From Eukaryota sp. GEM-RC1 (taxonomy: Eukaryota): 64,000 nt of DNA. Below the pieces are notes generated by a model, which saw only the letters and a program-made list of their open reading frames with translations, was not told the origin of the DNA and made no database searches. Location of the stretch: NCBI GenBank assembly GCA_040285855.1, contig JAUFOQ010000003.1:1-64000 (forward strand), read 5' to 3'. The translations under genes and the position numbers were made by a program. Positions within the stretch are counted from its first letter, which is position 1, and each line of letters begins with the position of its first letter. This document shows positions 5,649-63,144 of this stretch, piece by piece.

Positions 5649-6657
5649 CAGGTTAGTAGTTCTACTTGCTTTGTATTTTAGTTTCTTTAGATTCTATTTA
5701 CTTTATAATAAATACCTGTCTCACGAAGACAGAGGTCCACCATGGTCCGGGTGGTAACTGACTTCAACGGCTCTAAAGTATCATCGTGAGTCTGACTCCC
5801 TATGATCGTAAACATTTTTAAATACCAAGGAAGGTTTAAAAAGAAAAGCTAAAATTTCATTTCAGATTTGGTTTCTGAAAACAATTCTGAAATTTTTGGT
5901 AAGTTACAAAAGCGAAGCTGGAGAAGAGTTTTGCCTAAGTAACTATGTTTTAATCAATTTTATATATATGTCGTTTTCGTACAGAATTCAATTAATTATG
6001 AATTTCATTTATTAGTTAGTTTAGTTTTCTTTTAGAATTTTTTCAAATTTTAATAATAAATACCTGTCTCACGAAACATTGAAAAGTTTTTCTCACCAAT
6101 GAGAAAAAGAAAAAGTATGCTGATTTCTTCTTACCTTCAACAGGTTGTTTTTATGATACAACTGTTGTTGGTGGGAATAATCATTCACTTGAGAATGCAT
6201 TCAAGTCCCAGTTCTTGAGAAAAATGAACAATTATCAAGTTTTGATTGATGAAGGGCAAATATCTGAAGTTTGTCCGTTAATTTTTTCAAATTATGGTGG
6301 TATTGATCACAAGACTCTGAAAGTTCTAAGGAAATTGAAGTTCTCAACTCGTTCTTTTCAAATCATTAATTCTATTATTTTACGAGGCTCTTTGAAGTGT
6401 TGGTATGCGTACAGAAATACCAAGGAAGGTTTAAAAAGCAGTGCTTAAAATTTCATTTCAGATTTGGTTTCTGAAAACAATTCTGAAATTTTTGGTAAGT
6501 TACAAAAGCGAAGCTGGAGAAGAGTTTTGCCTAAGTAACTATGTTTTAATCAATTTTATATATATGTCGTTTTCGTACAGAATTCAATTAATTATGAATT
6601 TCATTTATTAGTTAGTTTAGTTTTCTTTTAGAATTTTTTCAAATTTTAATAATAAAT

Positions 6658-8647: not shown

Positions 8648-11600
8648 TTTTTTTTTTTCCCTTCATGACACAAACTTTCAAAAGACAAACTCGATCTCTT
8701 CGTTTGGCTTCTTCCTCTGAGAAGCTCCCTGACAAGCCCTCTGATCCTCCTTCGGGTGTTGCCAAGAAAAAACCTGCTTCTTCTTCTTCATCTAAAAAGA
8801 AGAAACCTCCTCCTTCTACTTCTTCTCTACGCGGAACGTCTTCCCCAGAGTGTGTTGTATCTTCTAACAAGCTTTTAGCAACCTCTCATGATGTTTCCGC
8901 AGTTTTAGAGGAAGGAAAAAATCTTCCTCATCTACCTCCTCTACTTCCTCTTCCTCCTTCATTCCTGTACTCAATTCATCCTCTACAAGACCTCCTCCAT
9001 CGGTTAGAAGCAAATCCTCTTCCATTTCTACAAATGTCTCTCCTGAAAAACACGCGTGTTTTGACACGTGTGTTGAAAATTTAAATTCTTCCTCCTTGTA
9101 TCCTGTTACTTGTCCTTCATGTGATTCCTCCTTAGGTACTAAGAAAGCCCTGTACCAACATTTCAATGGGGGCAAGTGCCCAAATGATTTTGTTCCGTCC
9201 TCTTCTTTTCTCTCTCCCTACAATCTTTCTTTCTGTCCTGTTGATGGTTGCTCAACCATCATCACAAAATCGAAAGCTGGTTTAACAGCTCATATTACCA
9301 AGATGCATGGTGATTTGCCTACTGGTGTTCAATTCGATTTTAAAAATTCTAGTTCTTTCCCTTCAAAATCTTTTGGTTCTAATTTGTTTGAATTTTCAGA
9401 TGAACTTTTTGTTTCTTTTTGTGAGCATATTTTTAAAACTGCTCCTTTTCTTTTCCAGTTAAGAAGTCCTTTTTGATGTACTTAACATCATTTGTTCTGC
9501 TCCTTTATCTCTTGAATCCAAAGCACGCTGGATTCTCCTTGCTCTTCCTTGTCTCTTTGCCAAGGGTAACTGTAATTCTAACTTCAAGAATTCAGTTTCT
9601 TTTTGTCGGCAGAGGATTTTTCTTTCTTAACCCCTCAAGTCTCTTCTTCTTCTAAGTCTTGTTCTTCTACTCGTTCCATGAAGTTGCTTCGTGATGGTGC
9701 TATTTCCAAAGCTTTTGATGTGCTGCTGAGAGACCCCTCTTCTCAGCTTTCTTTTCATCTGACACATTTCAAAAGTTGGTTGATCTTCATCCATCTGGTC
9801 CAAATCTGACCAATTTGGTTGAACCAGCTTCTTGTTCGTTTAGTTTTTCTGCTGAATCAGTGGTCTCTGCTATTCGCACTTACCCCAAAGGTTCTGCTGG
9901 TGGTCCTTTTGGCTGGACTTTGTCCCATTTTCCTGCCGTGTTGTCTGCTGATTTAAAAGAAATTTTGGTTTTTTGTTTAACAGCTTTTTAAACAATTCTT
10001 GCTCTTCTGTTCTGTCTTCTGTTTTGACTTCCTCTAAACTTCTTGCTCTTTCAAAACCCAATGGTGGGGTAAGACCTATTGCTGTATCTGAACTGTTTCC
10101 TCGGATTGTTGCTCGTTTCTTGGTTAAGAAGCTTAACTCCGATGTTTTCCGCAAATCTGGCCAGTTTGGTGTTTCATGCCCAAATGGTTCCGAAGCTATC
10201 GTCCATTATCTCCGTTCTTTGCGTTTCTCCCATCCTAGTTCTCGAATTATTTCTGTTGACATCAGGAATGCTTTTAACTGCGTTGACCGCATCCAGATGC
10301 TAAAGGCGGTCAAACAGTTTCCTGATCTACTTCCTTTTTTCTTTTGGAGTTATAGTACTCCTTCTGATTTGTTCTTTGACAATCATTGTCTTTCTTCTTC
10401 TCAAGGCGTCCGTCAAGGAGATCCTCTTGGTCCCTTTCTTTACTCTTTGACCACGCTTCCTGTTCTTTCCTGGCTTAATTCTCTTTCTGGTGTTTCTTGT
10501 GTAGCTTACCTGGATGACACTTATATTGTCATTGATTCTGATGTTGATTCTTCTGACCTTTTGAATCAGTTATCGCAAAAATATGCTGATCTTGGTCTGG
10601 ATCTTAATCTTGACAAGACCAAAATTTTTGCGACCTTTGACAATTTTGTTGCTTTAGGATCTCCAATTGGAGATTCTGCCTTTGAAAACGTTGGCCAAGA
10701 GTGCTTCCTCTTTCCTTAAAAACTATTTCAAAGTTGCCCGTTCAAGCTCAGCTTCTGTCGTACGTTACTGTATTAACTCAAAGTTGATGTATTGGGCTAG
10801 AACAGTGTCTGCTCCTTCTTCCAGGTTGCCCTCAAATTATTTTTCCAAGAACTTCTTTCTTGGATTTCTTCTCTTTACAGACTGCTATCCCTTATCCTGA
10901 TTTACTGTCCTTTCCTGTTTCTCTTGGTGGTTTTGGTTTGGCTGATCTTTCCTTAATTTGTGAGATTCCTAATGCCGTTTCTTTGTTTTCCACCCAGTTG
11001 TTATATTCCTTCCTTATATTCTTTTCCGTCTCCTATTGTAAAACTTACTTTGTCTACTTTAAAACCTATTCTTTTAGACTCAGATAATGCTTTTACCTAA
11101 GGGTGCTCCAGAAAAAACTAACTAGGATCTTCTTTTCAGATCGTGCTGAAATCTTTGCTTCTTCGTTGCCTTCAAATCTTCTTTCTGTCCATAATGCTTG
11201 CCAGTTACCTTTTTCTGGTCGTTTTCTTTCTCTTATTCCTTCTTGTCGAGACCTTACTCTTCAAGACTCCTCCCTCAGATGGATTTGCCGTCATCGTCTT
11301 CTTTGTAGTCAGGACATTGTTTCTTGTAATCTTTGCTCTTTTTCTTCGGTTGATGCTGGTCACAGCTCAAATTGTAACAGCTGTTCTCGTCATCGTACTT
11401 TTAGACATGACGAGATCAAGAATCCTACTGCCGAACACACTTCTTTTGCCGTTGAATTCAAATTGAAGCTTGGTGCCGCTTATGGGGTCATTGACTTGTT
11501 TGACCCCACATCTAAACTTGGTTTGGATGTTGCTGTGGTTGGGGGGAATGGTCATCTCCCTGACTATGATTTGGCCCATGCTGAATCACGTAAGTGGAAC

Positions 11601-11860
11601 AGGTATGGGAAGTTTAGACCTGGATTAATTTCTGATCTAGTTCCTTTGATTTTTTCAATTTTTGGTGGTTTGTTTGAGGAAACTATTGCTTCTTTGAAAT
11701 CTATTGGAGCTGATTCACTTATGGATCAGATTCATTGTATTTTAATTCGTAGAGGTGAGAGTATTTCTTGTTTGTATCAAACACTGGCTAAGCTTCGCTC
11801 AGCTGGTATTTAGTTTTAATTTCTTATATTTTGCTATTTGTATTGATTTACCTTAATAAA
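8648..11860 (+). mobile_element. Near full-length CRE-like (REL endonuclease) non-LTR retrotransposon inserted antisense in 28S site A (family A)
   Basis: 12-bp TSD AGCCGCTTCGAT at 8636-8647 and 11861-11872; the site is empty in unit 2 (23931-23942). Starts with a T-run, ends AATAAA. Confidence 0.93.
8665..11813 (+). pseudogene. Single-ORF retrotransposon protein (Zn fingers, RT, CCHC, REL endonuclease), frameshifted
   Basis: CPSC...H and CPVDGC...HITKMH fingers; SAGGPFGW, RPIAVSE, QFGV, DIRNAFN, GVRQGDPLGP, YLDD; CNLC...HSSNC...RHD...DVAVV...ESRKWNRY...PLIFSIFGG. Confidence 0.9.
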
Positions 11861-41101: not shown

Positions 41102-41760
41102 CTACAACAGAACATCGAACGAGTTGAATACTTCAATTTCTTTAAAAAAATTAAGAGTCTTGTGATCAACACAACCATAATTAGAAAAAATCAATGGACA
41201 AACTTCAGATATTTGCCCCTCATCAACCAAAACTTGAGACTTAAATGCATTCTCAAGTGAATGATTATTCCCACCAACAACAGTTGTATCATAAAAACAA
41301 CCTGTTGAAGGTAAGAAAAAATCAGCATACTTCTTCTTTTTCTCATTGGTTAGAAAAACCTTTTCAATATTCTTGTTCTCAACCGACAAAAATGAAGCAA
41401 TAAATAATTTAAGTTCGTCATGTTTCTCTTTTACCATTCGAGAATGACTTCCACAAGACAGTTGATGTGCCGTTGATAAATCTTTGTAATTGCATAAATC
41501 ACACACAGACATCTTTGAAAAATTCAATAATCTCCAGTTGACGAACAAATTAAATTCAACATCATTACAAACAGTGTCACCTACTGGTAACGACAATAAA
41601 AAAGAACCAGAAAACGGTAACCATTGATATTCAAGTTCAATATGCTGATTTTCAGATAGATTATCTTTAAAATCAGAATAATTTCTATTCCAATGAATGT
41701 TGGATATTAAAAGTTAAAAATTATAAGGTAAATCAAACTCAAATAAATAATCATCGGCCA
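41102..41760 (-). mobile_element. Family B non-LTR fragment (CCHC plus REL), same family as the 28S site-B insert
   Basis: CDLC...HQLSC...KHD...NIEKVFLTNEKKKKYADFFLPSTGCFYDTTVVGGNNHSLENAF matches 6075-6340. Confidence 0.9.
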
Positions 41761-44810: not shown

Positions 44811-45201
44811 TTGTTCATTATAACTTTGTATGATATTGTTGAATTGGTACCTGTCAAAAATCAAATGAAGGTAATCTAATTGGACTGCAGCAACCAAAGA
44901 TTCTTTTTGTTGATACAACAACACCAATAACAACAGCTATATCTATATATGATCTCATGTTTATAATTATTCAACAAATTATACACAATCCCAACTGTTG
45001 ACTCGATATAAACAGAATCTCTTTAAAAAAGTATAAGGTGCCTAGAGTTTGTAGAACTTAGATAGGTGAAATTGTATGTAGATCAAATCTTTGGTTTTCC
45101 TTTGTCCCATTTGCGATTTGACACTATTTGACAACAGTAAATGAGTGCCTCACATAAATAACATATAACAACTAGTCTTGTCAAAAGAGGGGAAAGTAAT
45201 A

Positions 45202-45299
45202 TGTTAGCCAAAGGTATAAGTATGGTTACGTAGTCAGTTATTTCACTTTATAAACACCTTTTACCTTCCCCCATTCTTTACCCATACCTTCTGGTATCA
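45202..45299 (+). repeat. 5' LTR
   Basis: TGTTAGCC...GGTATCA, identical to 51905-52002. Confidence 0.95.
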
Positions 45300-45771
45300 A
45301 TAATTATTGTCTGTTTGTTATGGTTAAAAGAAGACCCGTTCCCGTTCCCAGCTCTTCCAGTGAAGAGTCTGAATCTAACTCCAGCTCAGAGTCATGCTCT
45401 GACAGCTCATCCGATGTAAGTCCTTCGGGCATTCGAAGTCCCCCACCCAGTGGCGAATAGTGGATCCCCCACCTAGTGGCGGTGAAACTAATGGTGTAAG
45501 TCCCCCAAGTCCTGGCGGCATCAAGGATGGTGTAAGACCCCCAGTCTATAAGGCTGGCGGCAATCAAAGGAATGTTCTTCCTGCTCTCGACGTTGAAAGG
45601 TTGTTGAGCAAGTTCACTCCTGCGGAAGGAGTCTCCTCCAATGCGTAGCTTCAACAAGAAGGACCCATTGTAGTACGAAATGGACCTCCTCCTTCCTTTC
45701 CTCCTTCAAATAGTAGTTCTTCAAATAGTTCAATTGCTCATAATAAAGAGAATGTTTTAGTAGATGATAGT

Positions 45772-47709
45772 ATGGACACAGTAGTTCCTCCAGAGAGGGA
45801 TCCTGCTGTAGTTAGGGCAATTCAAGTTTTACAAGAATCCTTAACTAGAGAAAAGACCATGAGAGCCGAAGCAGAGAAGAAGCTTCGTGTTGAACAGGAA
45901 CAACAAGCTTTACGTATGCGTATGTCTCCTGAAGATCGCGCTCGCGAAGTAGAAAGACTTGTTGAGTCTAACGGTATAGGTTTCCATCGAGACGCTATAC
46001 CCGACAGACTAATCCCATGGGTAACCCCACATGATCAGAACGTTTCAATCTCTGATGCTGACATGTGGCTCCTTGCGAAATTCCGTCCATGGCATCCAGT
46101 CATCAGGAACCGCATGCCACCAAGTAGTCATTACTTGCTGAGGAACGTTCCACCTGGTATCAATCCTTCCCTAATCGAACAATTCTTAGGTGGGTTATAC
46201 AACAGGGATGCTGGAGACACGTACCGTTTCCCCTCAGACAGTTCCTGGGATCCAAGACATGGTATCATCATTGAGCCCCTCGAACCCAAATTCAGCTCTG
46301 ACGGCCTAAATGTTACGTATGAGTATACTGCGTGGTATCAACACTGCCTTAACAACCAGTCCCAGATCTACCACAACGTTGCTATTAGTACTAAATGGTT
46401 ATCTCCTAACCACAAGTACTCCCATCTGCCAGTGTCTTCTTTCCGTGATGGCAATTCTAGGTTAGAAGCCCCCGATGTCGACTCTACTCGAATTATACCC
46501 TTCAAGGGTATTGGTGGTTCCCAGAGAGTTCTCCCACTTGCAGCTGGTGCTCTAAGTGAGGTTGGAACTGTAACGCCTAACCAAGACGAGCTAAGCCGAA
46601 CTGAACGCCTTACTCCTGTAACTCCTGGTGAGGTAGAACATCCTGAAGTCGTCGATAGATTTTCAATTGACGATGAAGGCTTCAGGTCCAGAAATGACGA
46701 ATCAACCGCCAAATTCGACGAAGAGAAAGCTAGTACGCGCTACTTAGCCCGTATGGAGCATGAGAATGTGTACCGCAAACCAGCCGCTTTCGCCCAAGGT
46801 CACAACAATGCCGATTCATCAGTAATCCACAAAGATGACCTGCTGAAAGCTAGAAAAGAACGTGCTGCTAGAGTGATTGCCAAAGCCAAACAGAAACGAT
46901 TGGATGCAGAACATCAATCAAAATTGATAGCCGATCTGTCACCTTCCATTGAAGATCACATTGACCTATCAAGCTCATCCTCTGAAGACGAACGTCGTGC
47001 TAACGTCCTTCATGATACTCCGATCCTTTCTTCTGGTGTTACTCAAAAGATTAAGAAGAAGTCCAAGAAAGATTCCAAGAAGAACTGTCCGTTTCTCAAG
47101 AACGATGAACGGTCTGAAGTAGTGTCCTTCTTGCATGATTTCAGCCATTGGGCGGTGCACAAACGAAAACAGCAAGAACACAAAAGTTTCGACACTTGGC
47201 TTGGTTACCCGCGAAATAAGTTTGATTTTGCTAGAACAGCCTTGTGTGAGGTGGACCCAGAAGGGGTAAGCGAGTTCATCGATCAGACAACTCTCTCCAC
47301 CTGGAGGATGATGGATACAATCACCGACAGTAATAGTACTGCTGTTCTTGAACAATCCATCTGGCGGTTGTTAGTGGACAAGAGTCAATACTCTTCTACC
47401 ACTGCAGCCTCGAATGCCATAAGAGCTGTACGCTTAGGCAGAGCCAAAGACCCCCTTGAATGCATCGAGAAGTATCTCTGCAACATCATCGTAGTGCTGA
47501 AGTGTTCTATGGCCATTCCATCCCTCTCAAGTGATTCTGCCCAAAGAGAGCATCTTCATGCTTCCACTGTCGCTGATGTGGTCTTGTCCACGTTAAACCC
47601 CAATCAGGATATTGTACCTCTGAATGAGCTACATGTTCGTTGGGACCAACAACTGAAGACGGATGATAGCCTCCTCCCTCAATTCTTTAACGAAGTCAAA
47701 GGTATCTAG
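45772..47709 (+). CDS. gag: Gag-like ORF (probably extends from about 45320 to the CCHC knuckle at 47873-47914, with disruptions)
   Basis: 645-aa ORF between the LTR and pol; downstream CFNCGIPGHLSSEC zinc knuckle. Confidence 0.7.
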   Translation: MDTVVPPERDPAVVRAIQVLQESLTREKTMRAEAEKKLRVEQEQQALRMRMSPEDRAREVERLVESNGIGFHRDAIPDRLIPWVTPHDQNVSISDADMWLLAKFRPWHPVIRNRMPPSSHYLLRNVPPGINPSLIEQFLGGLYNRDAGDTYRFPSDSSWDPRHGIIIEPLEPKFSSDGLNVTYEYTAWYQHCLNNQSQIYHNVAISTKWLSPNHKYSHLPVSSFRDGNSRLEAPDVDSTRIIPFKGIGGSQRVLPLAAGALSEVGTVTPNQDELSRTERLTPVTPGEVEHPEVVDRFSIDDEGFRSRNDESTAKFDEEKASTRYLARMEHENVYRKPAAFAQGHNNADSSVIHKDDLLKARKERAARVIAKAKQKRLDAEHQSKLIADLSPSIEDHIDLSSSSSEDERRANVLHDTPILSSGVTQKIKKKSKKDSKKNCPFLKNDERSEVVSFLHDFSHWAVHKRKQQEHKSFDTWLGYPRNKFDFARTALCEVDPEGVSEFIDQTTLSTWRMMDTITDSNSTAVLEQSIWRLLVDKSQYSSTTAASNAIRAVRLGRAKDPLECIEKYLCNIIVVLKCSMAIPSLSSDSAQREHLHASTVADVVLSTLNPNQDIVPLNELHVRWDQQLKTDDSLLPQFFNEVKGI

Positions 47710-48097
47710 CTGACCTACAAACGATCCACTGCTGTAGCTCCTTCGCCTGCCTCCCGTAATCTCCCCTGCTAAAGGTAGACAAGATTTCCCAAGAAAACGT
47801 GGCCTCCACCCTAGAAACTATGGTCCCAAATTTGGTAGACCCCAGTCTCAAGATGATAAGTCCCCAATTAAATGTTTCAATTGCGGCATCCCCGGTCATC
47901 TCTCGTCTGAATGCTGTCGTGGCAAATTCAGTGCTCTGACTCCTAGGGACTCTAATGGAAAGCCCTTAAAACGTAGGTCAGGTGATAGTGATAGCAATAG
48001 AGGTCGACCAAATCGTCCTAATAATTTTAATAAATCAAATAATTACATTGTTCAGATTTCAAAGTTACAATCTATACATCCTACACCGACAAAGTAC

Positions 48098-51000
48098 ATG
48101 AACCCATTGGCTGCTTTGAACACACATTCAAGCAAGGGTAGAAGTACATCATCTGTTGAAACAATTCGGAGTCTCAACCAGAACTTAGGGATCGAGTCAA
48201 AGGATAACGGTTCCTTGTGTATTCGATTGTTAATTAACAATGTGCCAGTGACTGGTGAGTTTGATTCGGCAGCTTCGTGCTCAGTCATATCCCAAGATTT
48301 GATTCGTCACTGTGAGATGACAACGATTGACAGTTGTATTGACTACATCTCTGCGCATAATATTCGTGCAACATCCTTAGGTAGTGCAGTAGGTGTTCTG
48401 ACGTTCAACGTTGGCAGCCTAGCTAACCAGATTCATGTTAAGCACACTCTCCCCGTAGTACCTGGTACCAAAATTCTACTGATTGGCAGAGATTTGCAAG
48501 AAGAACTGGGGTTGCTAACGGATGATGGTCTAGTCATCAGATTAGATAAAGAGCATCGCACAATTCTCAATGCAGAGAGTGCATTCGATGGTAGAATGAA
48601 ATCACCATGCGAATCGATCAATAGTGTTCAATCAAATTCCTCAACAATAAATAATTTAAATATTGATCTGTACGGCAACACTCAAACTGACATCAGTTTA
48701 TTTGAAGAGACCATTGACAACTCTGGTTGTTCGATAGAATTGGATGATCCTAATAGAAGAAAGGAGCTTCTGAGCCTACTCAGTAAATACAAACAGGTGT
48801 TCTCTGAAGAGATACATCCAGATGGTATCGATTGTCCACCGATGACCATTCCGTTTTACGATGAATCTGTCACTGTATTTCGTCCTCCTAGAAGGCTTAA
48901 CCCTGAAAAACAGCGTATAGCCGAAGAAATTTTTAACGAACTTATACGACAAGGATGGGCTGTACCATCGACTGGTAAGTTCAGTAGTCCCATTGTGCTC
49001 GTTGTTTATAACGACCACAAAAAGAAGCCTCGTTTGACTGGTGACTTCAGTGGACCAGACGGGATTAACGCTAATACCAGACCGGTGAAACCAAACTTAC
49101 CTCGGATCTGTGATGTTCTAGAGTTCCTTTCGAAAGCAAATTTTATTGGAACACTCGACCTTCCTAAAGCATTCTGGCAGCTAAATGTAGCTGAGGACGA
49201 TGTTGAGAAGACCAGTGTGTCTATACCTGGAATGTCAATTAGCTTCAAACAAGCATGTTTTGGTTTGAAAAACGTACCAGCGATTTTCCAAAACATCATG
49301 ATGGAAATATTCGATGTGGAAGGTGTATTCATTTATATAGACGATATAATTGTAGTAGGTGACACTTTCGAACAGTTTATTTCAAGAATAAATCTAGTAC
49401 TGGAACGAGCAGAACGTTTTAGAGTACGGATTGGATTACGGAAGTGTAGGTTCACCACTTCCAAACATCCTAATAAGATTCTGGGCAGCAATTTTTGCAA
49501 CAAAACCCGTAGCATTGATGAGAAAAGAGTTTCGGCCTTGATTGAGCTTTCAGCTCCTTCAACATTACCCGGGGTAAGAAGTTTACTTGGCGCATTAAAT
49601 TATGTTCGCGAATGGATCCCGAATTATTCAAATTTGACTGCTGCAATCAATGAACTCACTCGCGGAAAACCAAAGAAGATTCTTTGGACTAAAGACCATG
49701 ATGCTTTACTCGCACAACTCAAGTCCGAGATACTAAACCACATGGCATTGGACTTACCTGATACTGATAAAAATATTATCATATCAACTGATGCATCCGA
49801 CATTGCTGTTGGTGGTGTGATCTGGCAGGAAGAAAATCCCCCAGCTCCTCCAGGTACTCCGTTAGAAGAACGTAGAGTCAGACCTGTGTCTTTTTATAGC
49901 CGTTTACTCAATGATAGTCAACAGAATTCGGCAACTATCCAGAAAGAGTTGTACGCCATTCTCTTGATTCTGACCGAATCTAGTTTAGAAGGTTTCTTGT
50001 TAAGTAGGCACTTGACGATCTTCACTGATCATAGGAACCTTGCCTATCTAATATCAGCTCCAGAGAAGAATCGCATTGTGAAACGATGGATTCCCATTTT
50101 ATCTGAGTTTGATTTTGAGATAGTGCACGTAGCTGGTACAAACAATCACTGGGCTGACATTTTGTCACGTGTCATTGACCGACGTCCAGTTGAATCAATC
50201 AAATCTTTGATGATCTCAAATCTGTCCATCAAAAATGATATAACCCTTTGTCACGAAGGCTTACGCTATGATGATGCAGATTATTTTGAGATGCTCCCAC
50301 GTAACACCAACGTGCTAGCTATCAAGTGTCTTCGTGACCTCTCATCTGACAATAAAATCCCTTTATTTGATTCTTGGCTATCAACCATCAGGTTGGAACA
50401 ACGTAAAGCGATAGAACAAGGAGAACATCTGTTCACTGACGCGACTTTGTGTACAACGAGCAACGTTTACATAAACTCTAAGAACAAGATATTGATTCCA
50501 TCCAGTTTGGTAAAGAAGGTTCTTTACATGCTGCATGGATTAGTCCAGTCAGGACATCCAAACAAGAAACAAAGTTTGGACACACTGTGCAATAGTGGTT
50601 ACTTTTGGCCAAGTATGAAAGCTGACATGAAGAAACATGTTGAGCAATGTCCCTCGTGTCAAAAAAACGGCACCTGTTCCCAAAAAGATTATTGAATCAA
50701 CGGGTTCCTTGTGGGCTGACAGACCTTTTGCTAGACTCAACGTCGACACAATTGGTCCACTTCCAAAAGATCAGAGTGGAAACCAATACCTCTTGGTGTT
50801 TGTAGATTCTTTCACCAGATACACCATTCTGAGCCCCCTCGAAGAACTCAACAGTAAAGAAGTAGCATATTGTCTTGTATGGGATGTAATTGCTATCTTC
50901 GGAATACCGTTGTGTATCCATAGTGATAATGGTACGGAGTTTGCCAATGCTATTTTCGAGGCAGTTTGTAACCTACTGGCGATTGAAGTAAGTCGTTCGA

Positions 51001-51904
51001 TTCCTCATTTCTCGCAGAGTAATGTGCTGGTGGAACGACGTCACAGAGACGTTCTGCAGAGCCTACGTCGTCTCCTAGTGGACTTCAATGATTACGACAA
51101 TTGGTCAACGTACATTCCAACTGTACAGTTGCAAATCAACGCAACAAAGAGCTCTGTTACTGGGCATACTCCCTACGAACTGATGTTCGGTAGCGATTTA
51201 AGTCCCGGTGCAGATCCTAGTGGTTTACTAGATGCTGTTGAGAAATCATCAAAGAATGTTCCGTTTATTGACGACATTAAAATGAAACTAGATCGACTAA
51301 CAAAAAGAGAGAAGATGCAGAGATTCGACAATCGTCAGTCAAGCCCAAGAAGAATTCTGAGTCTAGTCAATCATTTAAGATTGGAGATCTTGTCTTGAAA
51401 GTCTCAAAAACTAGTAAGCTCCACGGTAATTACTCTGGGCCTTTTCTAGTGGTATCAATCGATTCGAAGTCGTCAATGTCTTTGAAGAATCTGATCACTG
51501 GTCATGTTAGTAAGAATAGCATGCATCAATGCAAGATCTTTCAATCAGATCTTCCAGCTGATCATGACATCCATAGAGCAATTGCCTCTGGAGATTCTGA
51601 AGAACACATCGTGGTTAAGATCCTGGATAGGTTTAATACACCCGATGGTGAGTATTGTACGGTCCTCTGGTTTGGTGGCGATACCTCATCAGTTCCCACT
51701 AAAGACATCAAGAACACCAAGGCCTACAGTGAATTTGTAAAATTAGAAAATGTAGATTTATTTCATAGTAATAGTAAAATTAAGACTAGTAACAAGAAGC
51801 CTAAGCTTAAACGTACCTCAAGCAAGAAGAGCAATCCTAAGTCACCCAACGTTAAGATACCTGTGGCTAAGAGAACAAGGAGCTCGAAAGAAGAGAAGAG
51901 GTAA
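48098..51904 (+). CDS. pol: Pol polyprotein: protease, RT, RNase H, integrase, chromodomain-like tail; frameshifts near 50660 and 51310-51395
   Basis: FDSAASCS; LDLPKAFWQ, FGLKNVPA, YIDD; TDASD; H..GH...CPSC, VDTIGP, HSDNGTEF, VERRH, GPFLV; EHIVVKILD...VLWFG. Confidence 0.92.
51886..51901 (+). promoter_or_regulatory. Polypurine tract
   Basis: gaaagaagagaagagg, 3 nt before the 3' LTR. Confidence 0.8.
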
Positions 51905-52002
51905 TGTTAGCCAAAGGTATAAGTATGGTTACGTAGTCAGTTATTTCACTTTATAAACACCTTTTACCTTCCCCCATTCTTTACCCATACCTTCTGGTAT
52001 CA
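51905..52002 (+). repeat. 3' LTR
   Basis: Identical to the 5' LTR. Confidence 0.95.
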
Positions 52003-52319
52003 AATAAGAACAAAAGTTACATGTGTTATATTATGATAACATTTTAGAGTTTATGAAAACTTTAAATGTTTTAATCTTGTTTGTGGTGACCACATGACGT
52101 CATGCCCAAGTAAAAAATCGAAATAAAATTGATAACTGCTTAACATATCAATATTCATATCCATTTTTATGGATCCTCTCTCCATTTTTTTTTCTCCTTT
52201 CAATGGCATGATCCAACTTTTCAGTTCTTTCTTGAAAGTGATCGTCGATATCCATGGTTTTCGTAGATCTGGTTGCCAGTTGTTCTTTGGCTATGAACTT
52301 TAGTAGACCTTACACTATT

Positions 52320-53990: not shown

Positions 53991-54589
53991 ATTAACTTCT
54001 GCAAATACATTTATTTCACTGACTGATCATAAACCCCGTTTTTTTTGTGTATTTGTGTATTTTTTGTATTATATTTTTAGAGGTGGTGTATTTCCCAGTA
54101 ATGCCTCCAACACTAAGGAAATGAACTATCAACCAGGTCGTAAGCCAATGTAAAGAGGCCTTGGACACTACAAGCTAAATAAGGTGGTAGTGTTACGATT
54201 TATTCCGTATTGCGATTACAAAAATTGTGGAAACTGGCGGCTAACGAGCTAAATCCTTTTAATTCAATTGTAAAGTCTTTGTTTAATGCTGATATGGATG
54301 TCGCTTTTGTTTGTATGTGTTTGTTGTTGCCCAAATTGTCATTTGTATAATGGAATTTGGATGTAGTCATTTCCTTTAAAACACTACAGTCTGTTCTTCC
54401 CTTTTCTTTTGTGTTTTAATCACATTTTTCTTCCATTAGTAGTTGATGAAACTAATTCTGTATCCAAGTTGTTTGGTGCAATAACTACAATAACTACTTC
54501 TCGGAATGAGGTAGTTTGTTTGATAATTTGTTTTAATTATCTTTATTTATTTGTTGTTTTCTTGTTGTCTGCTATTCTCCACACATAAA

Positions 54590-55665
54590 TCCGCTTCTGT
54601 ACCAAAATTTAACCTAAAAAACAGGATTAAAAAAGTGGATTACCTTATCAAGGCTAACGGAAAATCTAAAGCCTTTGCTCTTTTATCTAGTCCACAGACT
54701 GCTATTTCTTTAGCTCCAGATGAGATTTATAATAAGTTAAAGGATATGAATCCTGAATCTCAAAAACTTTTTATTAAAAATAATAATATTCCAGCTGGTA
54801 TTACACTAGCAGAAGTTGAAGCGTCATTTGCTTCGATTTCTAAAACCTTAGAAGGTGGTGTTTCTCTTTGGAACTTATTTCAAATTCTGTGAAACCCAAT
54901 TTTAAAAATTTTTGTTCAATTTATCATCATTAGTTTTAAGTAACTCTCTACCTCGTCAGCTGCACAGAGCGTTGACTTCGTCACGTTTAGTGACAATTCC
55001 AAAAAACGAGGCTGGGACCAAAATTCGACCCATTTGTATCCCGGAACTTTTTTATAAAATTACTTTTAAGGCTCTTGCCTTAACTATTGTCAGTTCAGAT
55101 CTTGCTTTAGCTGGCCAACTTAGCGTTAAAGAAGAATCTGGAGCTGAGTCCATTATTGATGAGACTTTAAAATCAGGTCAGTACTCAAAATTTCAACTAA
55201 AAATCGACGTGGAGAATGCTTTTAACTCTATATCCAGTCAGTAATGATTTCATCTTTTAAAAACTTCAAAATTTCATTATTTCTTTTATTTCGCTTATGG
55301 AATATCTTCTGAGCAGACTTATCAAAATTTTGATATTTCCTTGCAATCTGGAGTGCGTCAAGGAGATTCAATGTTTTTCTTTTTCTTTGGGTATTCACCC
55401 AACAATTTTTAAAATTCGAAGTACTTTTCCTGATATTGCTGTTTTTGCATATCTGGATGACATCTTTGTTTTAACTAAACGTCAAAAAGACTTGGATAAT
55501 GCTTTAAATTTATTTTCTGAACATTTTTCAAAAATTAATCTTAAATTTAATAAAAGTAAGTGTGAGACACTTACTTGAGACAATCCTGGTGAAGCTATTG
55601 GTGGATTTGTCGGTAAAAACATTGATTCATGTATTTGTGACAAAGTTAATTCGATTTTAAGATAG
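54590..55665 (+). mobile_element. Degenerate CRE-like RT fragment
   Basis: KIRPICIPE, AGQL, DVENAFNS, GVRQGD, AYLDDIF. Confidence 0.85.
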
Positions 55666-57007
55666 GTTGCAAAGTGACAATTCTCGGTTGTTGTTACAGT
55701 AAACTCTCACACAAAATTAGTAAATCTGAATCGATCGAGAAGTATCATCATAGTCACAATAGTCAATCATGATCAATGAAGATTCTGAGTAGTTGAAATT
55801 ACTTCTTCCACCGAATAGAATCATCACTAGAGGATGACTTTTAAAAACTATAAGACATTCCTTTGTTTGAAAAAAGTATTTAATGTAAAATCATTAAATT
55901 TAAAGTCTAAGATAATCGAGCAATATTCAAACTGTTAATTTGAACCAATACTTATCAAAAGTTGATGAAACAAAGTGAAATTTACTAATGACCACTAGTC
56001 AAGAAAGAGCATTGTTTTAACTAGTCGAAACAACTAAATAACTCCCAATGATATTCTGAATTATCTAGCCACAACAATTAAACAACAATTAAAATATGAC
56101 ATAGAAAAGGATTCTAGAATTAATCGGAATTAGTAAAAGTCAAAAAGACCTTAAGAACATGTGAAAAAGAGATTCCATCAGTACTGATCCATAGAAACGT
56201 CATCAAAGAGAGAGAAAAGATCACGAGGACTGATAGAATGATTGGAATCACAAGACTCAAGGTTTCAAAAAATGATGGATTGATAAAAGAAGGATACGTT
56301 CATTAGAATGAGTGTCTTTAGATTCAGAAAAGTCCCAAACTATTGAGATGAGTGTTGCCACGTATAGTGACGTGTCATTGGTGTTATTTGATCTGTAGTT
56401 ATAAATAAAAACTCTTGTCTCTCTTTGTTCTTCTTGCCTAGACACGTGTTTCTGGCAACATGAGATAGAACTTCTTAAGAAGTGATAGTAAATCTGCCGC
56501 TTTGCATCACTTGAAAGAAATAGAAAGAAAAAACAAAAGATGTTATCAACAAGTAAGGCAAGTTGTAGACAAGCAAACAAGACAAGAACACTAGGTGAGG
56601 ATGTTAGACCTGAGAAAATGAAATAGATAGAGAGGTATAAGAGCAATCATTAAAAGAAGCATGCCTTTTCACTTGGGCATGGCGACGCTGAAAATAGAGT
56701 AGTTCTTGATGGCTTCATCATGAAGAAGCAGAATATCTGTGTGCATTCTTCGTCCATCATTCCTACTCTAAGTTCTTCATAGAGTGGTACATTCTTAAGA
56801 CGTATGGAATCTCCTTACAACTTAAGCGAAGTAAGGGGGTTCAGTGACAAAGTATTCCCATTTTTCTGTTCCCATGAAAGATGTTGCGAAACTATTACAA
56901 GATGTTATCTTTCTTGAAACTGTTAAGAATCAGATGTCCGTGAATAGTTAAGAAGTAGCAGATATGAAAGTAAGGTTGAGACTGAGTTATGAGTATACTG
57001 TTTTTCA

Positions 57008-57082
57008 ACCAAATGTTGTCATTACAAATGTTGTATCACCAAATGTTGTCATTACAAATGTTGTATCACCAAATGTTGTCAT
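57008..57082 (+). repeat. 30-bp tandem repeat x2.5 (five CAAATGTTGT cores) upstream of a TATA box
   Basis: accaaatgttgtcattacaaatgttgtatc repeated exactly. Confidence 0.9.
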
Positions 57083-57131
57083 AAAAATCATGATGATGTC
57101 ATAATGTCAAGTTGTCACTGTAGACAACATC

Positions 57132-57139
57132 TATAAATA
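57132..57139 (+). promoter_or_regulatory. Candidate TATA box of the Fanzor polyprotein locus
   Basis: TATAAATA 30 nt upstream of the ORF start. Confidence 0.45.
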
Positions 57140-57168
57140 GTTGAAATCCTTTTGAACTGTATCTTTTC

Positions 57169-59110
57169 ATGTTCCTTTGCTCTCAAACACCACAAGGTGT
57201 TTTGGTAGATAATAAGAGGATTAAGTTACTCGAGGCATCACCTGGTCTTTCCTTTCTGTTTTGTTTTTGTTTTCAACACCACAAGGTGTTTTGGATGATA
57301 CTGAGAGTATTTAGTTACTCGAGGCATCATTCTTCTTGTTTGTTCCCTTTGTTGTCACCTTCCAAACACCACAAGGTGTTTTGGATGATAATAGGAGAGA
57401 GATCCCTTTATGTGACAATAAATCAACAGTCATCACAGTTTGCTCATGATTTAACCACGGAAGGAGACATAGAGTCAAACCCTGGTCCTTTTGTTACTGA
57501 GGAAGGAATCACCACATTGAAGCCCTCCGTATGGCTCGATGATTCTGTTGTTGACTTTTATGGTGAGTACATCACCGAGAGTAGCGAGTTATGCCAGTTT
57601 TTCCGTATCGGGAATCTTCATGCTGCAGTGAGTTATGGCGATTTTGACACATTAGCTCTTGAATTTCTAAATGTTCAAAATTCAATGCGAGAGACTGGAA
57701 AAAGGTTTTTATTTATTCCAATAAACGATGGTGTCTTTCGCGGTACAGCAACTCATTGGACTCTACTTGTTTGTGACATTGATAGTACATCATTTTTTTC
57801 ACTTGATCCAATGTACACTGACAGTTCAACTCAACTTTCATTTGACGTTTTAACTCAAAATGATCAAGTTTTAAGTACATTACAGGAATATTTGCGTCAT
57901 TTTGGTAATTTTTCAAATTTAGGAAAGCTCCCAGTTATTAAACAGCAAACTCCCAACGACTGTGGACCATTTATCTTAATGTATATGCAAAGATTTGTTC
58001 ATTTGGCATCAACATCAGACAATTTCCAGGAAATTATGTTTCAAGTCCAAGGTTATGTCGATTATGATGCTTCTGAAATGAGAAAACAAGTTCTTAATCT
58101 AATAGCATCCACGCATCCTATTCCTTTTGCTATACTTGCTGTAAGTATTGTACATGAGTACTTTTCAAACAACATTCAAGCACATGTTCAAGAACACAGT
58201 ACTATAGTTCATTCAACCCCTTCCCATCAACAAATGAATAGATCTGCTGGTACTTCTGAAATAGCCGAACATCCAACAGTAGTTTCATCTCCTGATGAAA
58301 CTCGACAAGTGCCATTGACTATACCCAATCAACTTATAGACTCAAATCGTACAAGAAAAACTCGTCAATCTAGAAAATATCCTCCAAAAAAGAAGAAATT
58401 TTCTCAAAAATATCAAATTTTAAAACATCAACATCGTGGAATTCTAACACAATCTCGTCCTAGACCAATTTTACTAAGATCTAATCAAATTGATACTCTG
58501 AAACCCAATGTGCTGCTTCATGATTCTGTCATTGACTTTGTTGGTCAGTACATTGCTGAAAAGAGTAATCTATGCGAGTTCTTTGAAGTAGCCAACATTC
58601 AAGATGCTATTAATCTTTCACAATATAACATAATGTTTGCACAATTTAGAGAAGTTCAATTATCAATGGAAAAGTCCAGTAAAAGACACACTCAAAAGTG
58701 TAAGAAACGTTTCTTGTTTATTCCAATACATGACGGTCTCTTTGATACAACAGCCACTTACTGGTCACTGTTAATCTGTGATATTCAAAATAAACAATAC
58801 TTCTCTATTGACTCAATGTGTACAGAAGATCAACATTCTCAGATTTCTAACACTTTTATCACGTATTGACAATGTCATTTCACAATTACAGCAATTCCTG
58901 TTTGATATGGCAAATTTCAGCTACATAGCTAGAGTACCAGTTCAACAAGTCCAAACTCTCAATGCCTGTGGTCTATATATTCTAATGTATATGAATAAAA
59001 TTGTCGAGAGTGAATCAACATCAACAAATCTTTTGAAATTCTGTCTAAAGTCTCTAACTGTGTTGTTTATAATGCATTAGAAATGAGAAAACAAATACTG
59101 TCTCAAATCG
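57169..59110 (+). CDS. 2A StopGo peptide followed by two Ulp1/C48-family cysteine protease domains (second is frameshifted, His to Tyr)
   Basis: HDLTTEGDIESNPGP; LKPSVWLDDSVVDFY...FIPIN...HWTLL...LD...QQTPNDCGPF; the repeat has YWSLL...NACGLY. Confidence 0.85.
57184..57390 (+). repeat. About 89-bp tandem repeat with hairpin AACACC-acaa-GGTGTT, three hairpins
   Basis: aacaccacaaggtgttttgg at about 57186, 57275 and 57365; agttactcgaggcatca twice. Confidence 0.9.
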
Positions 59111-59734
59111 TTACTACTCACCCTGATGAAGATCACCCTGATGAATACCGACAATATGTATGTACTCATGCCCAAGGTATTTTAAATGAGTTTTATTCTG
59201 ATGAGATTGAATCACCTGTTAATCAACCTGTACAGTGTCGATCTGAAAGTTTAACTCCTGAAACAATGGTAGATGATAGTAGTTACAAGGAAACGGTATC
59301 AAAGCTCACTTGTCAAAACTTTCTCAAAAGTTTACCTGGAAATTTATCTAACCGGAAAAGAAACGTCTTTTGAAGTTAAAAATGATTGAACAAGCGCTGA
59401 AAGAAGCTGAAGAAATATTTCAAGAAAGTTATCATAACTTTAGTCGTCCAGAGTTAACAGATCTTCCAGAAATAAATTTACCAACTCCAAAAATAAATGT
59501 TGCTGCTTGTGAGAAACCTGATACAACAGAAACAGCAGAAACAATTGAGTCATCTGACACCACTGAACCAACAACAGCAACAGGTAATAGAAAGACAACA
59601 GTTGCCAAAAGGAAAACCACCAAACCAAAAGCAAGTGGAGTATCAAATGCGACAAAGACTTTGAAACCTCCTAAAAAGCCAATGATTGAGTTTCTGAAAC
59701 ATTCCCAATTACCAAATAACTCTAATCATTGTTC

Positions 59735-60450
59735 AATATTGTTTTTGATATTGAAACTAGAGAAATTGATCAAATCCCTGCAGAGACAGTTACACAGGAG
59801 TTGGACGATCAAAGAAAGAACGAGAATGAATCTCTCAAAATGAAAAGTGATGCAGAAAAAGAAGTGTGGATTCAAAACCAACAAGTTTTTATGATTTCTG
59901 GGGTGTTTGGTCATTTTATAAAAGATCAATTTTACCTTCAAGACAATTTTGTTGCAACTTTAGAGTTGACTCAAGAATCTGATGTTGAACTGCCACCTGA
60001 TTGTAGAAACCTTCGATTTTTTGAAAACGAAAAACAGTTACTAGAGTTTTTGTCAACTATTTGAATGATAAAAATCCCTCAGTTTTAACTGGATTTAACA
60101 TAACTGACTTCGATAATGTTGTTTTAGGCAACAGGATTGTTACACTTGGAGTCGACTTTCCAGAACCAATGCTAGATGAAACAACTAAATCTCATTTATC
60201 ATCTCTATGGCAAAATGTTTGTTCTGAATGGGCTGGTAGAATTGCCTGTGATTCATACGTTTATGCTAAGCAATTTATTGTTTCAAAATGTTCAAAGTCT
60301 TTAAGATCATTAAGTTGGTTTTTATTAAACGAATCTAAAGGACGTCTTCATGACGAATTTCACCACTTATTGCCTATTGATTGTGTTGATGAAAGACCTC
60401 AAGAAGTTGTAAACTATTGCTTCAAAGATAGTGTAATAGCATTGAAGTTG
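59735..60450 (+). CDS. DnaQ/PolB-type 3'-5' exonuclease domain (frameshift near 60060)
   Basis: ExoI VFDIET, FENEKQLL, ExoII GFNITDFD, ExoIII YCFKD. Confidence 0.8.
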
Positions 60451-60489
60451 TTTTTATTGTTTCAATCAAATAAAATCGTTCGCCCAACT

Positions 60490-62551
60490 TTTGTAACACA
60501 TAAAACTACACTAAAGTCTATTGTCAAACATTTTGGATTAACGCTATTACTCGATTATTATGCTCAGTTGGTTCACAAACTTAGAATGCACACTTCCTAT
60601 TGCTTGAAGCTGTTTTTATTACACATGGATAAGAATGGTGAAAAATTACCTTTAATTACAAGGAAAGAAGTAGAACATATTCAAACTCTGTTAAGATACA
60701 TCTCTGCTGAACATCATGAGATTGAATTATGTAATCAAGGACGACCTCCCACATATAATGATCACTTAAAAAACTTTGTTTTAGAAGAATACAAACAAGT
60801 AATGCTCAACAATGGAGGAATTCCACTCTTTCCAGCTGCTCATTCCTCACGGCTTATGGCAATGGTTGGTGAAACTATTAAATCGAATTTGGACACAAAC
60901 ATTAAAATGCGATATGCTCAATACATTGACAAATTTATTAATGTTTATTTTCAAAAGACTGATCAAGAAGAAACAATGTCAAAAAAAGAACAGTCTGTTT
61001 TTCGTTGGAGACTAAGACAAGTTAAAAATGTCTTTCTTGAAGGTAACAGAAATGACATTCCAAAAACCCCTGCAGAAATAAAACAATTTATTCAAAGATG
61101 TAATACAGAAATTCTTCAAGGCGACAGTAATAGAAGTTTGAACATTGCAGGTAAAATTAAACTTCTATGGGCAACAAACGACTATGTTGAAGGATTGTTT
61201 AGAGATAAATATTTTATTGATGTTCTCTTCCCACCATCAATTGATGTTCAAAATGCTAATGGTGTTTATAAAAAGAAAGTCGTTAAATCTCTACTAAAAT
61301 CAGTTCGTGAACATCCCCAGTCCTTTATTAAATCTGCGATTCAAATAAATAACTATCTTGAAAGTAAAGGAGCAAGTGCTTACAATGTAATTCCTATTAT
61401 TCGTCACGTCACACCAGGTTTCTTTGTCAAAACAAGTGAATGTCAAGAAGAAAATGTCTGATTGGAATACACAAACTGAAATTCAAAAATGTCTCCTGCT
61501 GAACAAAATCAATTCTGGTCTTACTTTTTCAACTTTAATCGTCCATTTATAAAGAAAGGCTATAAGTTTAACAATACCATTAAAACTGATGGTTTCTCTG
61601 CTTGTGTTGAACTTACCAAAGAGGACTGTGTGGGAATGTCCTTTAAACCAGACAGTGCAAAGTTCTCCAGTAAAGAAGAATATGTTCAAGACTATGATGT
61701 TGAAGAGTTTTCATTGAAAACAAAAGTTTTTATTGATCCTGGAAAAACAGATTTACTCTATTTTTGTTCAGAGAAAGTAAATAGGCCATTTCCTGAACAA
61801 AAAGCCCGTGAAATGAGAAACAAAGAATACGAGTGGCTAAGATTGACAGAGACAGAATGGTCCAGATGGTCAAGGGTCCATCAAAAGTTTAGAAGGGGAA
61901 AGAAAAAAGAATTCATTCTCCGAGATGGAAAGACAGTTGAAGAAGAAGAGTCAACATTGTCCATAGAAAATTCGAAATCGACTCTTTATGAAACCTTCTA
62001 TGACTATGTGGGTTCCAAACTAACAGTTATTGAATCAACATTTGATTACTACTGTTTGATGATATGGCGCATTCAAAAATGCAAAGATACGTCCATATTC
62101 AAAAAACAGAAAGTAAGTTGTTGAAAAATATGACTGCAAAAGGATGGAATAAAAATGACTGTGTATTGATGTTTGGTGACAATGGTAATAAGAGGCAGAA
62201 TCTAAAACACCTCCGATCAAGTAGAGGTGTGATGTGGAGAAACTTCTTTAAGAGAAATCGTTACAACCTTGTTCTCGTAGATGAGAGTTACACATCTTCA
62301 AAGTGTCCTACTTGTTGGGGGCCAGTCAAAGTGTTCAAAGAAATCAGTAATCCAAAACCATGGAAAGAGAGAAGAAACCTCTGGTAAAGTGTCACGCTTT
62401 GTTGAGATGTAAGTCCCAAGAATGTAGAGAAGAATGTCATGGTAGCGCCAAGGTTTGGAATCGTAACAAGTTGGCATGTATCAACATCAAAACCATTGTG
62501 GAGCATCATTTGGAGCGGGGTCTAGGAGTTAGACCCAGTTATTTGTCATAG
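60490..62551 (+). CDS. Fanzor (eukaryotic TnpB-like RNA-guided nuclease), disrupted
   Basis: KTTLKSI...LKLFLL N-terminus, IKTDGFSAC, RuvC-I IDPG, FGD, RuvC-II VDESYTSSKCPTC, LLRCKSQEC, RuvC-III WNRN..ACINI, terminal RPSYL. In frame with the exonuclease C-terminal half. Confidence 0.88.
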
Positions 62552-62715
62552 TCATAGTCATAGCGTTTTTACTACAGTGAATCTGTAGCATTATTGAATC
62601 TTAGAATTTGTCAGACATCTTCTCAGATTCATGGAAGTAGAGAAAATGGAAAAGTATAGCTGAGGATTTCCCAATGGAAACCCCTACCTATCTCAACTGT
62701 TGCTAATTTAGTCAT
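62530..62715 (+). ncRNA. Candidate Fanzor omegaRNA scaffold
   Basis: Three stem-loops directly after the stop: ctacag/ctgtag, tgaatct/agattca, tagctgag/ctcaactg with inner tttcc/ggaaa. Confidence 0.5.
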
Positions 62716-63144
62716 GTATGTTGTCTATGTGCAGATGTTACCCTATCAAACATCCTTAAATCAACGATACCATCATTGAAAACGTCATATAACGAATAAT
62801 ACGGTACACCACTAACATACCAAAGTCCGTTTATATAGAACAAGTGTTCTTCATTCAAGTTTCTTTTGTCCTTTATGGGATCTTGAAGAATATACATGTA
62901 CTATTTTACATTTGATTTTAAAGTTGATGTAATTACGACTATAACATTTCTGAATAATCATTTTCTTTAAAAAGGTTGATCAAGGACGCTGACGTGATTA
63001 CTGTTGTGTACCGGTAAAAGCGATGTAATTGGAGTAGCAAACTTTAGTAACATTCGAACAAGACAATCTGAGTCACAATCACGACCTCCAACGTCATCAA
63101 CAGCAGAAACATATACAATACTAAAATCATATCTAAAAGACAAG

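Follow-up and report, generated by a model that had tools for sequence, protein, structure and literature searches.

The described systems closest to the gene reported here are the Fanzor1 nucleases SpuFz1 (Spizellomyces punctatus; PDB 8GKH/9CEU-9CEZ) and PpFz1 (Parasitella parasitica; 9CF0) and, more distant in sequence, GtFz1 (Guillardia theta; 9CER). The gene lies in a stretch of 64,000 nucleotides from Eukaryota sp. GEM-RC1 (assembly GCA_040285855.1, contig JAUFOQ010000003.1, positions 1 to 64,000; hereafter the window), and is a frameshifted member of a family in which an exonuclease of the family-B DNA polymerase (PolB) proofreading type is joined to the N-terminus of a complete Fanzor1. 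The family resembles SpuFz1 and PpFz1 in its WED/REC/RuvC/TNB fold (profile E 3e-42 and 2e-42, versus 3e-21 for GtFz1) and in a rearranged RuvC-II glutamate beside the zinc finger, and Spu-1 elements are likewise without a transposase in view; with GtFz1 it shares a D-E-N catalytic triad and the Fanzor1 fold (structural Z 21.4). Unlike SpuFz1 and PpFz1, however, it possesses a 245-residue N-terminal exonuclease, 2A-like and Ulp1 sequences further upstream and an asparagine as third RuvC residue, and 30-nt terminal inverted repeats were not found at the window copy. GtFz1 also has no exonuclease, and its loci seem, like the window copy, to be without inverted repeats (PMC10432273). The motif of Bao and Jurka ends in ‘RD’, whereas the window gene has RN at this place, as does the accepted member GtFz1.

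Parts of this arrangement are known elsewhere. The proofreading domain of family-B polymerases has the same ExoI-III motifs, but the family has an insert after ExoI and no polymerase. In homing of the T4 td intron, repair after the homing nuclease also uses PolB-type 3'-5' exonucleases (43Exo, DexA; PMC2988022, PMC12153337); these are phage proteins in their own right, and a protein directs the targeting, whereas here the exonuclease is fused to a predicted RNA-guided nuclease. TREX2-Cas9 and T5-SpuFz1 do tether an exonuclease to an RNA-guided nuclease, but are artificial and use flexible linkers. Finally, Ulp1 modules are known in Ginger1 and Mutator (PMC2836005) and 2A-like peptides in mobile elements such as L1Tc, Ingi, Rex1, L2 and CR1 (PMC3708506, PMC12338488), where a transposase or reverse transcriptase goes with them; in the present family they stand ahead of the exonuclease-Fanzor, and neither enzyme was seen. 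Within the literature searched, no natural exonuclease-Fanzor or exonuclease-TnpB fusion was found, and the word ‘exonuclease’ is absent from the main text of PMC10530073, PMC11423790, PMC10432273, PMC13565253, PMC3627910 and PMC10711439. The family is a new Fanzor1 variant with a conserved, tightly joined proofreading exonuclease.

In the window, the reading path runs from 57385 to 62551 (1,710 codons in ten segments separated by nine frame changes), and the terminal stop is its first nonsense codon. It follows the layout of the family, in which a 2A-like peptide is followed by none to two Ulp1 proteases, a linker rich in basic residues, the polymerase-type exonuclease and a complete Fanzor1. 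The features of the locus are as follows (P-numbers designate related proteins):

57163 to 57397, + strand: three direct repeats of about 89 bp, each with a small hairpin of the AAACACC-ACAA-GGTGTTT type (repeat search).
57385 to 57489, + strand: short N-terminal peptide with a 2A-like StopGo motif at its end (DIESNPGP, 57466-57489; from the sequence).
57490 to 58110, + strand: Ulp1/C48 SUMO-protease domain 1 (Pfam Peptidase_C48, E 3.9e-13, 50.2 bits for a cut-off of 20.7).
58450 to 59110, + strand: Ulp1 domain 2, with two frame changes (Pfam and motifs; intact counterparts of both copies in P0001 and P0006).
59111 to 59740, + strand: Lys/Thr-rich low-complexity linker, conserved in part, with a frame change near 59355 (tblastn to P0051 and P0019).
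59738 to 60470, + strand: predicted DEDDy 3'-5' exonuclease of family-B polymerase type, with a frame change near 60047 (motifs and P0002 fold).
60471 to 60501, + strand: exonuclease-to-WED junction, short and constant in length (10/10 family proteins shown and the window are free of indels from the ExoIII Tyr to the first WED strand).
60490 to 62551, + strand: full-length Fanzor1 (WED/REC/RuvC/TNB) with a C4 zinc finger and the stop at 62549-62551 (sequence and P0002 fold).
62552 to 62700, + strand: candidate omega-RNA region with three modest hairpins (placed by analogy with other Fanzor1 loci).

An initial annotation, made from the letters of the window, had proposed a proofreading exonuclease fused in frame to a Fanzor, and located its motifs correctly: FDIET (ExoI) at 59744-59758 in frame 2, GFNITDFD (ExoII) at 60091-60114, YCFKD (ExoIII) at 60415-60429 and the Fanzor start KTTLKSI at 60502-60522. 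Indeed, the last three share one open reading frame (ORF; 60061-61461, frame 1), ExoI being one frame change upstream. The extent of the gene, by contrast, had been only partly recognized: the stop at 61459 is not its end, as Fanzor pieces continue to 62551, and some 2.3 kb holding the 2A-like motif and two Ulp1 domains had been missed upstream of the exonuclease.

The first Ulp1 domain of the window copy displays all the His-Asp-Cys motifs (THWTLL, FSLDP, QQTPNDCG), and the second has a tyrosine in place of the catalytic histidine (TYWSLL). The RuvC residues of the Fanzor are Asp 61735, Glu 62283 and Asn 62465, and its sequence is broken near 61428, 61487, 62078 and 62364. Because the break near 61428 combines a frame change with a deletion of about 14 codons relative to relatives, the window copy is probably dead. 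Seven of the nine frame changes have the sense expected from the loss of one base, six of these within A or T runs (judged by eye). A neighbouring young Gypsy element (45201-52003, gag and pol separated by a stop) has 100-bp long terminal repeats (LTRs) identical at 100/100 bases and still contains two frame changes, both located in A runs of its integrase region; thus, some of the single-base breaks of the window gene may be consensus errors.

The fusion itself is best seen in relatives of the window copy. Of 2,968 candidates in a search for longer proteins, four matched; all four belong to Eukaryota sp. TZLM3-RCL, and the best three are about 45% identical to the window ORF across 97-98% of it. 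In P0001 (1,846 amino acids) and P0006 (1,905 amino acids), 2A, Ulp1, Ulp1, linker, exonuclease and Fanzor follow each other in a single chain. More widely, ExoIII and a RuvC motif stand in one chain in 21 proteins, and ten relatives hold ExoI-III and the three RuvC motifs in a single chain, with neither a stop nor a gap between the two domains. Together with the invariant sites described below, these single-chain relatives bear out the natural in-frame fusion with retained catalytic residues that had been proposed for the window.

The exonuclease belongs to the DEDDy, PolB type, with ExoI DxE, ExoII NxxxFD and ExoIII YxxxD all present. For Pfam DNA_pol_B_exo1, the ORF of the window gives a weak match (E 2.2e-4, 21.2 bits, below the cut-off of 23) and intact relatives give strong ones (50-60 bits). 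Among 40 aligned sequences, counted over the rows covering each site, the catalytic residues are kept almost without exception (ExoI D 29/29 and E 28/29, ExoII D 32/32, ExoIII Y 37/37 and D 36/36). Likewise, eight subfamily representatives of 25-51% identity (mean 33%) have only 23 of 229 columns invariant, and these comprise all six catalytic-motif positions (ExoI D/E, ExoII N/D, ExoIII Y/D); six of 30 D/E columns are invariant, four of them catalytic. Between subfamilies, the exonuclease is no less conserved than the Fanzor REC region (identity 31-34% versus 25-32% in five distant full comparisons). This pattern of substitution points to catalysis conserved by selection across subfamilies, and exonuclease activity is thus predicted.

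By best sequence match, the domain is nearest to Pol delta (3IAY/6S1M; yeast Pol delta E 2.7e-12, then E. coli Pol II 1.9e-8 and T4 4e-8), a candidate donor, but structural Z values are alike (17-18) for Pol alpha, epsilon and delta. Two features set it apart: a charged helical insert of 25-35 residues after ExoI, present in the window copy, and a shorter segment in place of the conserved GR/beta-hairpin stretch that follows ExoII in polymerases, where this stretch forms a beta-hairpin. We rejected the reading as a whole family-B DNA polymerase: the only Pfam families matched are exonuclease ones and, as the initial annotation had noted, no polymerase domain follows, the Fanzor fold beginning directly past the ExoIII helix (residue 248 onward in P0002).

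The predicted structure of P0002 (940 amino acids), built from a 98-row alignment, is confident across both domains (mean predicted local distance difference test score, pLDDT, 88.2; predicted template modelling score 0.80); an input of seven sequences had given a pLDDT of 36. Residues 1-245 have pLDDT mostly of 82-96, and their structural matches are exonuclease domains from Pol alpha, epsilon and delta, E. coli Pol II and the African swine fever virus polymerase (Z 17-18; root-mean-square deviation, rmsd, 2.4-3.3 Å across 170-192 residues), so that the DnaQ-like fold expected for this domain is indeed predicted. Residues 248-940 superpose on SpuFz1 18-631 (Z 27.8, rmsd 3.0 Å, 562 residues), and also match PpFz1 (Z 26.8) and GtFz1. 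The model has the WED/REC/RuvC/TNB architecture with an enlarged REC, and pieces of the window are 45-57% identical to P0002 along this domain. The RuvC-II glutamate stands beside the C4 zinc finger, window DESYTSSKCPTC aligning with SpuFz1 DEYKTSSVCPRC. Stand-alone Fanzors start at the very strand where the exonuclease junction ends. On this sequence and model evidence, the window family belongs to Fanzor1, and RNA-guided DNA cleavage is predicted.

The RuvC triad, which the initial annotation did not mention, is D-E-N in 9 of 10 family rows (the window and eight of nine relatives) and E-E-N in one, whereas it is D-E-D in 68 of the 70 other Fanzors of our tree. We considered and dropped the idea that the third-position asparagine marks a weakened nuclease, since GtFz1 cuts DNA with a D-E-N triad, and the D606N change raised the activity of SpuFz1 above that of the wild type (PMC11423790). 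D-E-N also occurs in P0056 and P0151, stand-alone Fanzor1 representatives outside the family, and in the subfamily of P0187 and P0202 the near-invariant RuvC-I DPG is replaced by DLGK/DIGK.

Both halves were placed in trees. A branch with support of 100/99 separates the ten family exonucleases from 12 polymerases (three mis-trimmed polymerase rows were left out), and the ten family cores form one clade opposite 70 other Fanzors (FastTree support 1.0; 70 of the 81 eligible full-length non-family Fanzors included). Sister pairs agree between the two trees. Separate family clades and matching pairs fit one ancient fusion, and the trees are thus consistent with a single origin.

About 90 named gene models fall into the family clusters (50 from TZLM3-RCL, 17 from TZLM1-RC and 23 from GEM-RC1), many of them partial; the nearest to the window are P0028 (72%, 419 amino acids), P0131 (86%, 139 amino acids) and P0050 (80-91%). 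At E <=1e-3, the exonuclease was detected in 39 of the 220 proteins compared, all 39 named from these same three genomes. Elsewhere, no fused relative was retrieved: the 28 loci retrieved from metagenomes all resemble polymerases and have no Fanzor match downstream (a same-frame DTDS motif was present in 19 of the 28, the others being cut short or without DTDS), and fused relatives numbered 0/175 and 0/57 among candidates from viral contigs and 0/59 in prokaryote genomes, with no match in a phage collection. Among the sequences searched, the family is confined to three related metamonad genomes. We take the strain labels to be those of Skoliomonas. Skoliomonad metamonads are the group described in bioRxiv 2023.05.03.539051, whose assemblies were produced by Nanopore sequencing and corrected with Illumina reads; such assemblies fit the many fragmented gene models of the family. 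The gene is present in many copies in these anaerobic protists, and is likely mobile. Four models, P0017, P0030, P0003 and P0216, display unrelated N-termini (a DEAH helicase, a DM10 domain or repeats) on 5'-shortened copies, and are either truncated insertions beside host genes or gene-prediction joins.

The front half of the protein is more variable. A DxExNPGP-type motif, two variants included, was found in 14 proteins of the family, from five subfamilies or more; DIESNPGP in the window agrees with the class A 2A consensus D(V/I)ExNPGP, as that consensus is worded in its source abstract, and skipping is predicted from this agreement. Ulp1 domains number from none to two and vary in position relative to 2A, whereas the exonuclease is constant: in P0090, P0187 and P0198, no Ulp1 was seen between 2A and exonuclease. 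In the P0190 subfamily, a Ulp1-like sequence stands ahead of 2A, the reverse of the window order, and there the 2A would separate the protease from the exonuclease-Fanzor.

What would such a fusion do? Recombination resection runs 5'-3', PolB exonucleases act on single-stranded DNA, and a proofreading-type 3'-5' domain would shorten 3' ends rather than make recombinogenic tails, so that the ‘resection’ of the Fanzor-made break suggested by the initial annotation has the wrong polarity. We favour instead, with a probability of about 50%, a role in homing: the exonuclease-Fanzor1 protein would cut an element-free target under RNA guidance and then probably shorten the displaced strand from its freed 3' end, so that the non-homologous tail would be lost and copying of the element from a filled allele (homing) favoured. 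More specifically, and more tentatively, it could act as a single-chain RNA-guided cut-and-trim enzyme, the tail being removed back to the target-adjacent motif (TAM) and the end priming on the filled copy, so that the gene multiplies without a transposase of its own.

In this scheme, an omega-RNA from the element's 3' end would guide the cut, as in SpuFz1 and GtFz1. The non-target strand would be cut 14-17 nt past the TAM, leaving a TAM-side end with a 3' tail of about 16 nt; because the element would begin directly after the TAM, this tail would find no match in the filled donor, and would have to be removed before synthesis or ligation. Such distances are those described for SpuFz1 (non-target strand after base 16-17, target strand after 20-21) and GtFz1 (14-17 and 14-16), and WED residues H21 and T22 stack on the first guide-target pair (PMC10432273). 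The exonuclease, about ten residues from the WED strand, would be placed at the TAM end of the R-loop, where it could degrade the single-stranded tail; trimming would also destroy the target, preventing simple re-joining and re-cutting. Ulp1 (deSUMOylation) and the 2A-like peptide (translational control) would be accessory. There are precedents for such trimming: intron homing in T4 is influenced by DexA and by the exonuclease of the phage polymerase (PMC2988022, PMC12153337), and in yeast gene conversion Pol delta is able to remove non-homologous 3' tails (PMC9477423).

Several observations nevertheless weigh against the homing role. With P0002 as query, HMMER returned 1,103 matches from a full scan of 1.84 billion representative sequences; among the best 150, 20 are family members, and none of the 130 other Fanzors displays an exonuclease domain, although the same profile picks up true polymerases at E 1e-8 to 1e-21. 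Any trimming would thus normally be supplied by the host. Homing is described for TnpB, not for Fanzor (PMC13565253), the engineered T5-SpuFz1 fusion lowered editing (PMC13434818), T5 being a 5'-3' exonuclease, and trimming could equally give deletions. At the locus, no omega-RNA, TAM, target duplication or element end could be demonstrated from the single DNA copy. No terminal inverted or direct repeats link 55900-57460 to 62552-63140 (length/mismatch settings of 12/0, 14/1 and 18/3 or 12/0 and 16/2), and no transposase remnant was found in 47 flanking frames.

If deletions are the outcome, the exonuclease may serve to destroy ends: both cut ends would be chewed and re-ligation blocked, making the protein an RNA-guided mutator, or a weapon against rival elements or viruses. 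The conserved catalysis and tight junction fit this equally, the window is crowded with other mobile elements, and engineered 3'-exonuclease fusions such as TREX2-Cas9 exist (PMC13370227). However, a flank-derived guide would target the element's own empty site, where a deletion brings no gain in copies (cf. PMC13565253), and no guide directed at foreign DNA was observed. We consider end destruction unlikely, although it comes next after homing.

Less likely still is a role in transposition proper, in which the exonuclease would trim the ends of the excised or copied element for a transposase encoded elsewhere rather than act on the Fanzor cut. Eukaryotic elements often carry accessory nucleases and proteases: DEDDh domains are described in P and piggyBac (PMC3627910) and DnaQ-like domains in LTR elements (PMC6338049), and Ulp1 is shared with Ginger and Mutator. 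Yet Ulp1 and 2A vary in number and order, whereas the exonuclease always stands on the WED strand with no indel, and neither the flanks nor any of the 24 long family proteins scanned contained a transposase.

Trimming of the guide, also suggested by the initial annotation, proved the weakest of the functional options, and we judge it improbable that the exonuclease sets the 3' length of the omega-RNA. Fanzor1 guides end 14-15 nt past the element and need some 3' processing (PMC10432273), and the charged helical insert could, from the model, bind nucleic acid. However, the best matches of the domain are all DNA polymerase exonucleases, with no RNase among them; other Fanzors, devoid of such a domain, obtain mature guides with defined ends, even in yeast; and the guide 3' end would lie at the end of the heteroduplex opposite to the WED start (both from PMC10432273). 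Lastly, a fusion without selected function, through insertion of a Fanzor into a polymerase gene or a gene-prediction join, is suggested by the few chimeric models (P0017, P0030) but is largely refuted, and very improbable, as the two domains are contiguous in the raw window DNA and occur fused in at least eight subfamilies (25-51% identity) from three genomes with invariant catalytic residues.

Under the homing role, the fusion would answer a general constraint: TnpB and Fanzor cut 14-21 bases from the insertion point, and homing must therefore dispose of a non-homologous 3' tail. From the alignments, an exonuclease appears to have been captured, attached where the nuclease begins on the TAM side, and retained across 25-50% identity. 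The fusion also offers a built-in test, as a single D/E mutation would separate cutting from end processing. It could further serve as a natural template for exonuclease-nuclease editors, where the first engineered SpuFz1 fusion failed, and brings with it a D-E-N active site, of the kind that raised SpuFz1 activity. Intact sequences are public, e.g. P0002; among the intact gene models are KAL0227605, KAL0211769, KAL0213088 and KAL0226007.

Around the gene, the candidate omega-RNA region has no Rfam match, and its folding is not significant (z -0.53 as a whole; z -1.76 for 62560-62640, with 11/200 shuffles as good). Upstream, one 89-bp repeat unit folds no better than its shuffles (z -0.01), and three 30-bp tandem repeats (56999-57088) directly precede the 89-bp array; both sets may be the 5' end or leader of the element. 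A 330-bp inverted pair (52430-52753/63143-63471) was rejected as element ends: its arms are 80% identical, have no sharp outer end and resemble decayed coding sequence. This pair brackets the Fanzor gene and the remnant of a decayed non-LTR reverse transcriptase (54551-55700), which has the same orientation as the gene and is separated by about 1.8 kb from the 2A motif downstream of it; no reverse transcriptase was found in the 24 family proteins scanned.

The window as a whole is eukaryotic, with a tandem ribosomal DNA array and linked 5S, several decayed non-LTR elements and one Gypsy. The ribosomal repeat, of about 12 kb, occupies 1-32762; every unit encloses a 5S gene, and all these genes lie on the - strand. 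One copy of the large-subunit (LSU) rRNA gene is split by a 3.2-kb non-LTR element (8648-11860) inserted about 890 nt from the LSU 5' end and flanked by a 12-bp target duplication (AGCCGCTTCGAT); its reverse transcriptase frames are on the + strand, antisense to the rRNA, with a T run at its start and AATAAA at its end. The same LSU copy contains a second, short insert (6075-6414), flanked by a 255-bp duplication (5820-6074/6415-6670); this insert matches a non-LTR remnant at 41117-41371 with 83% identity.

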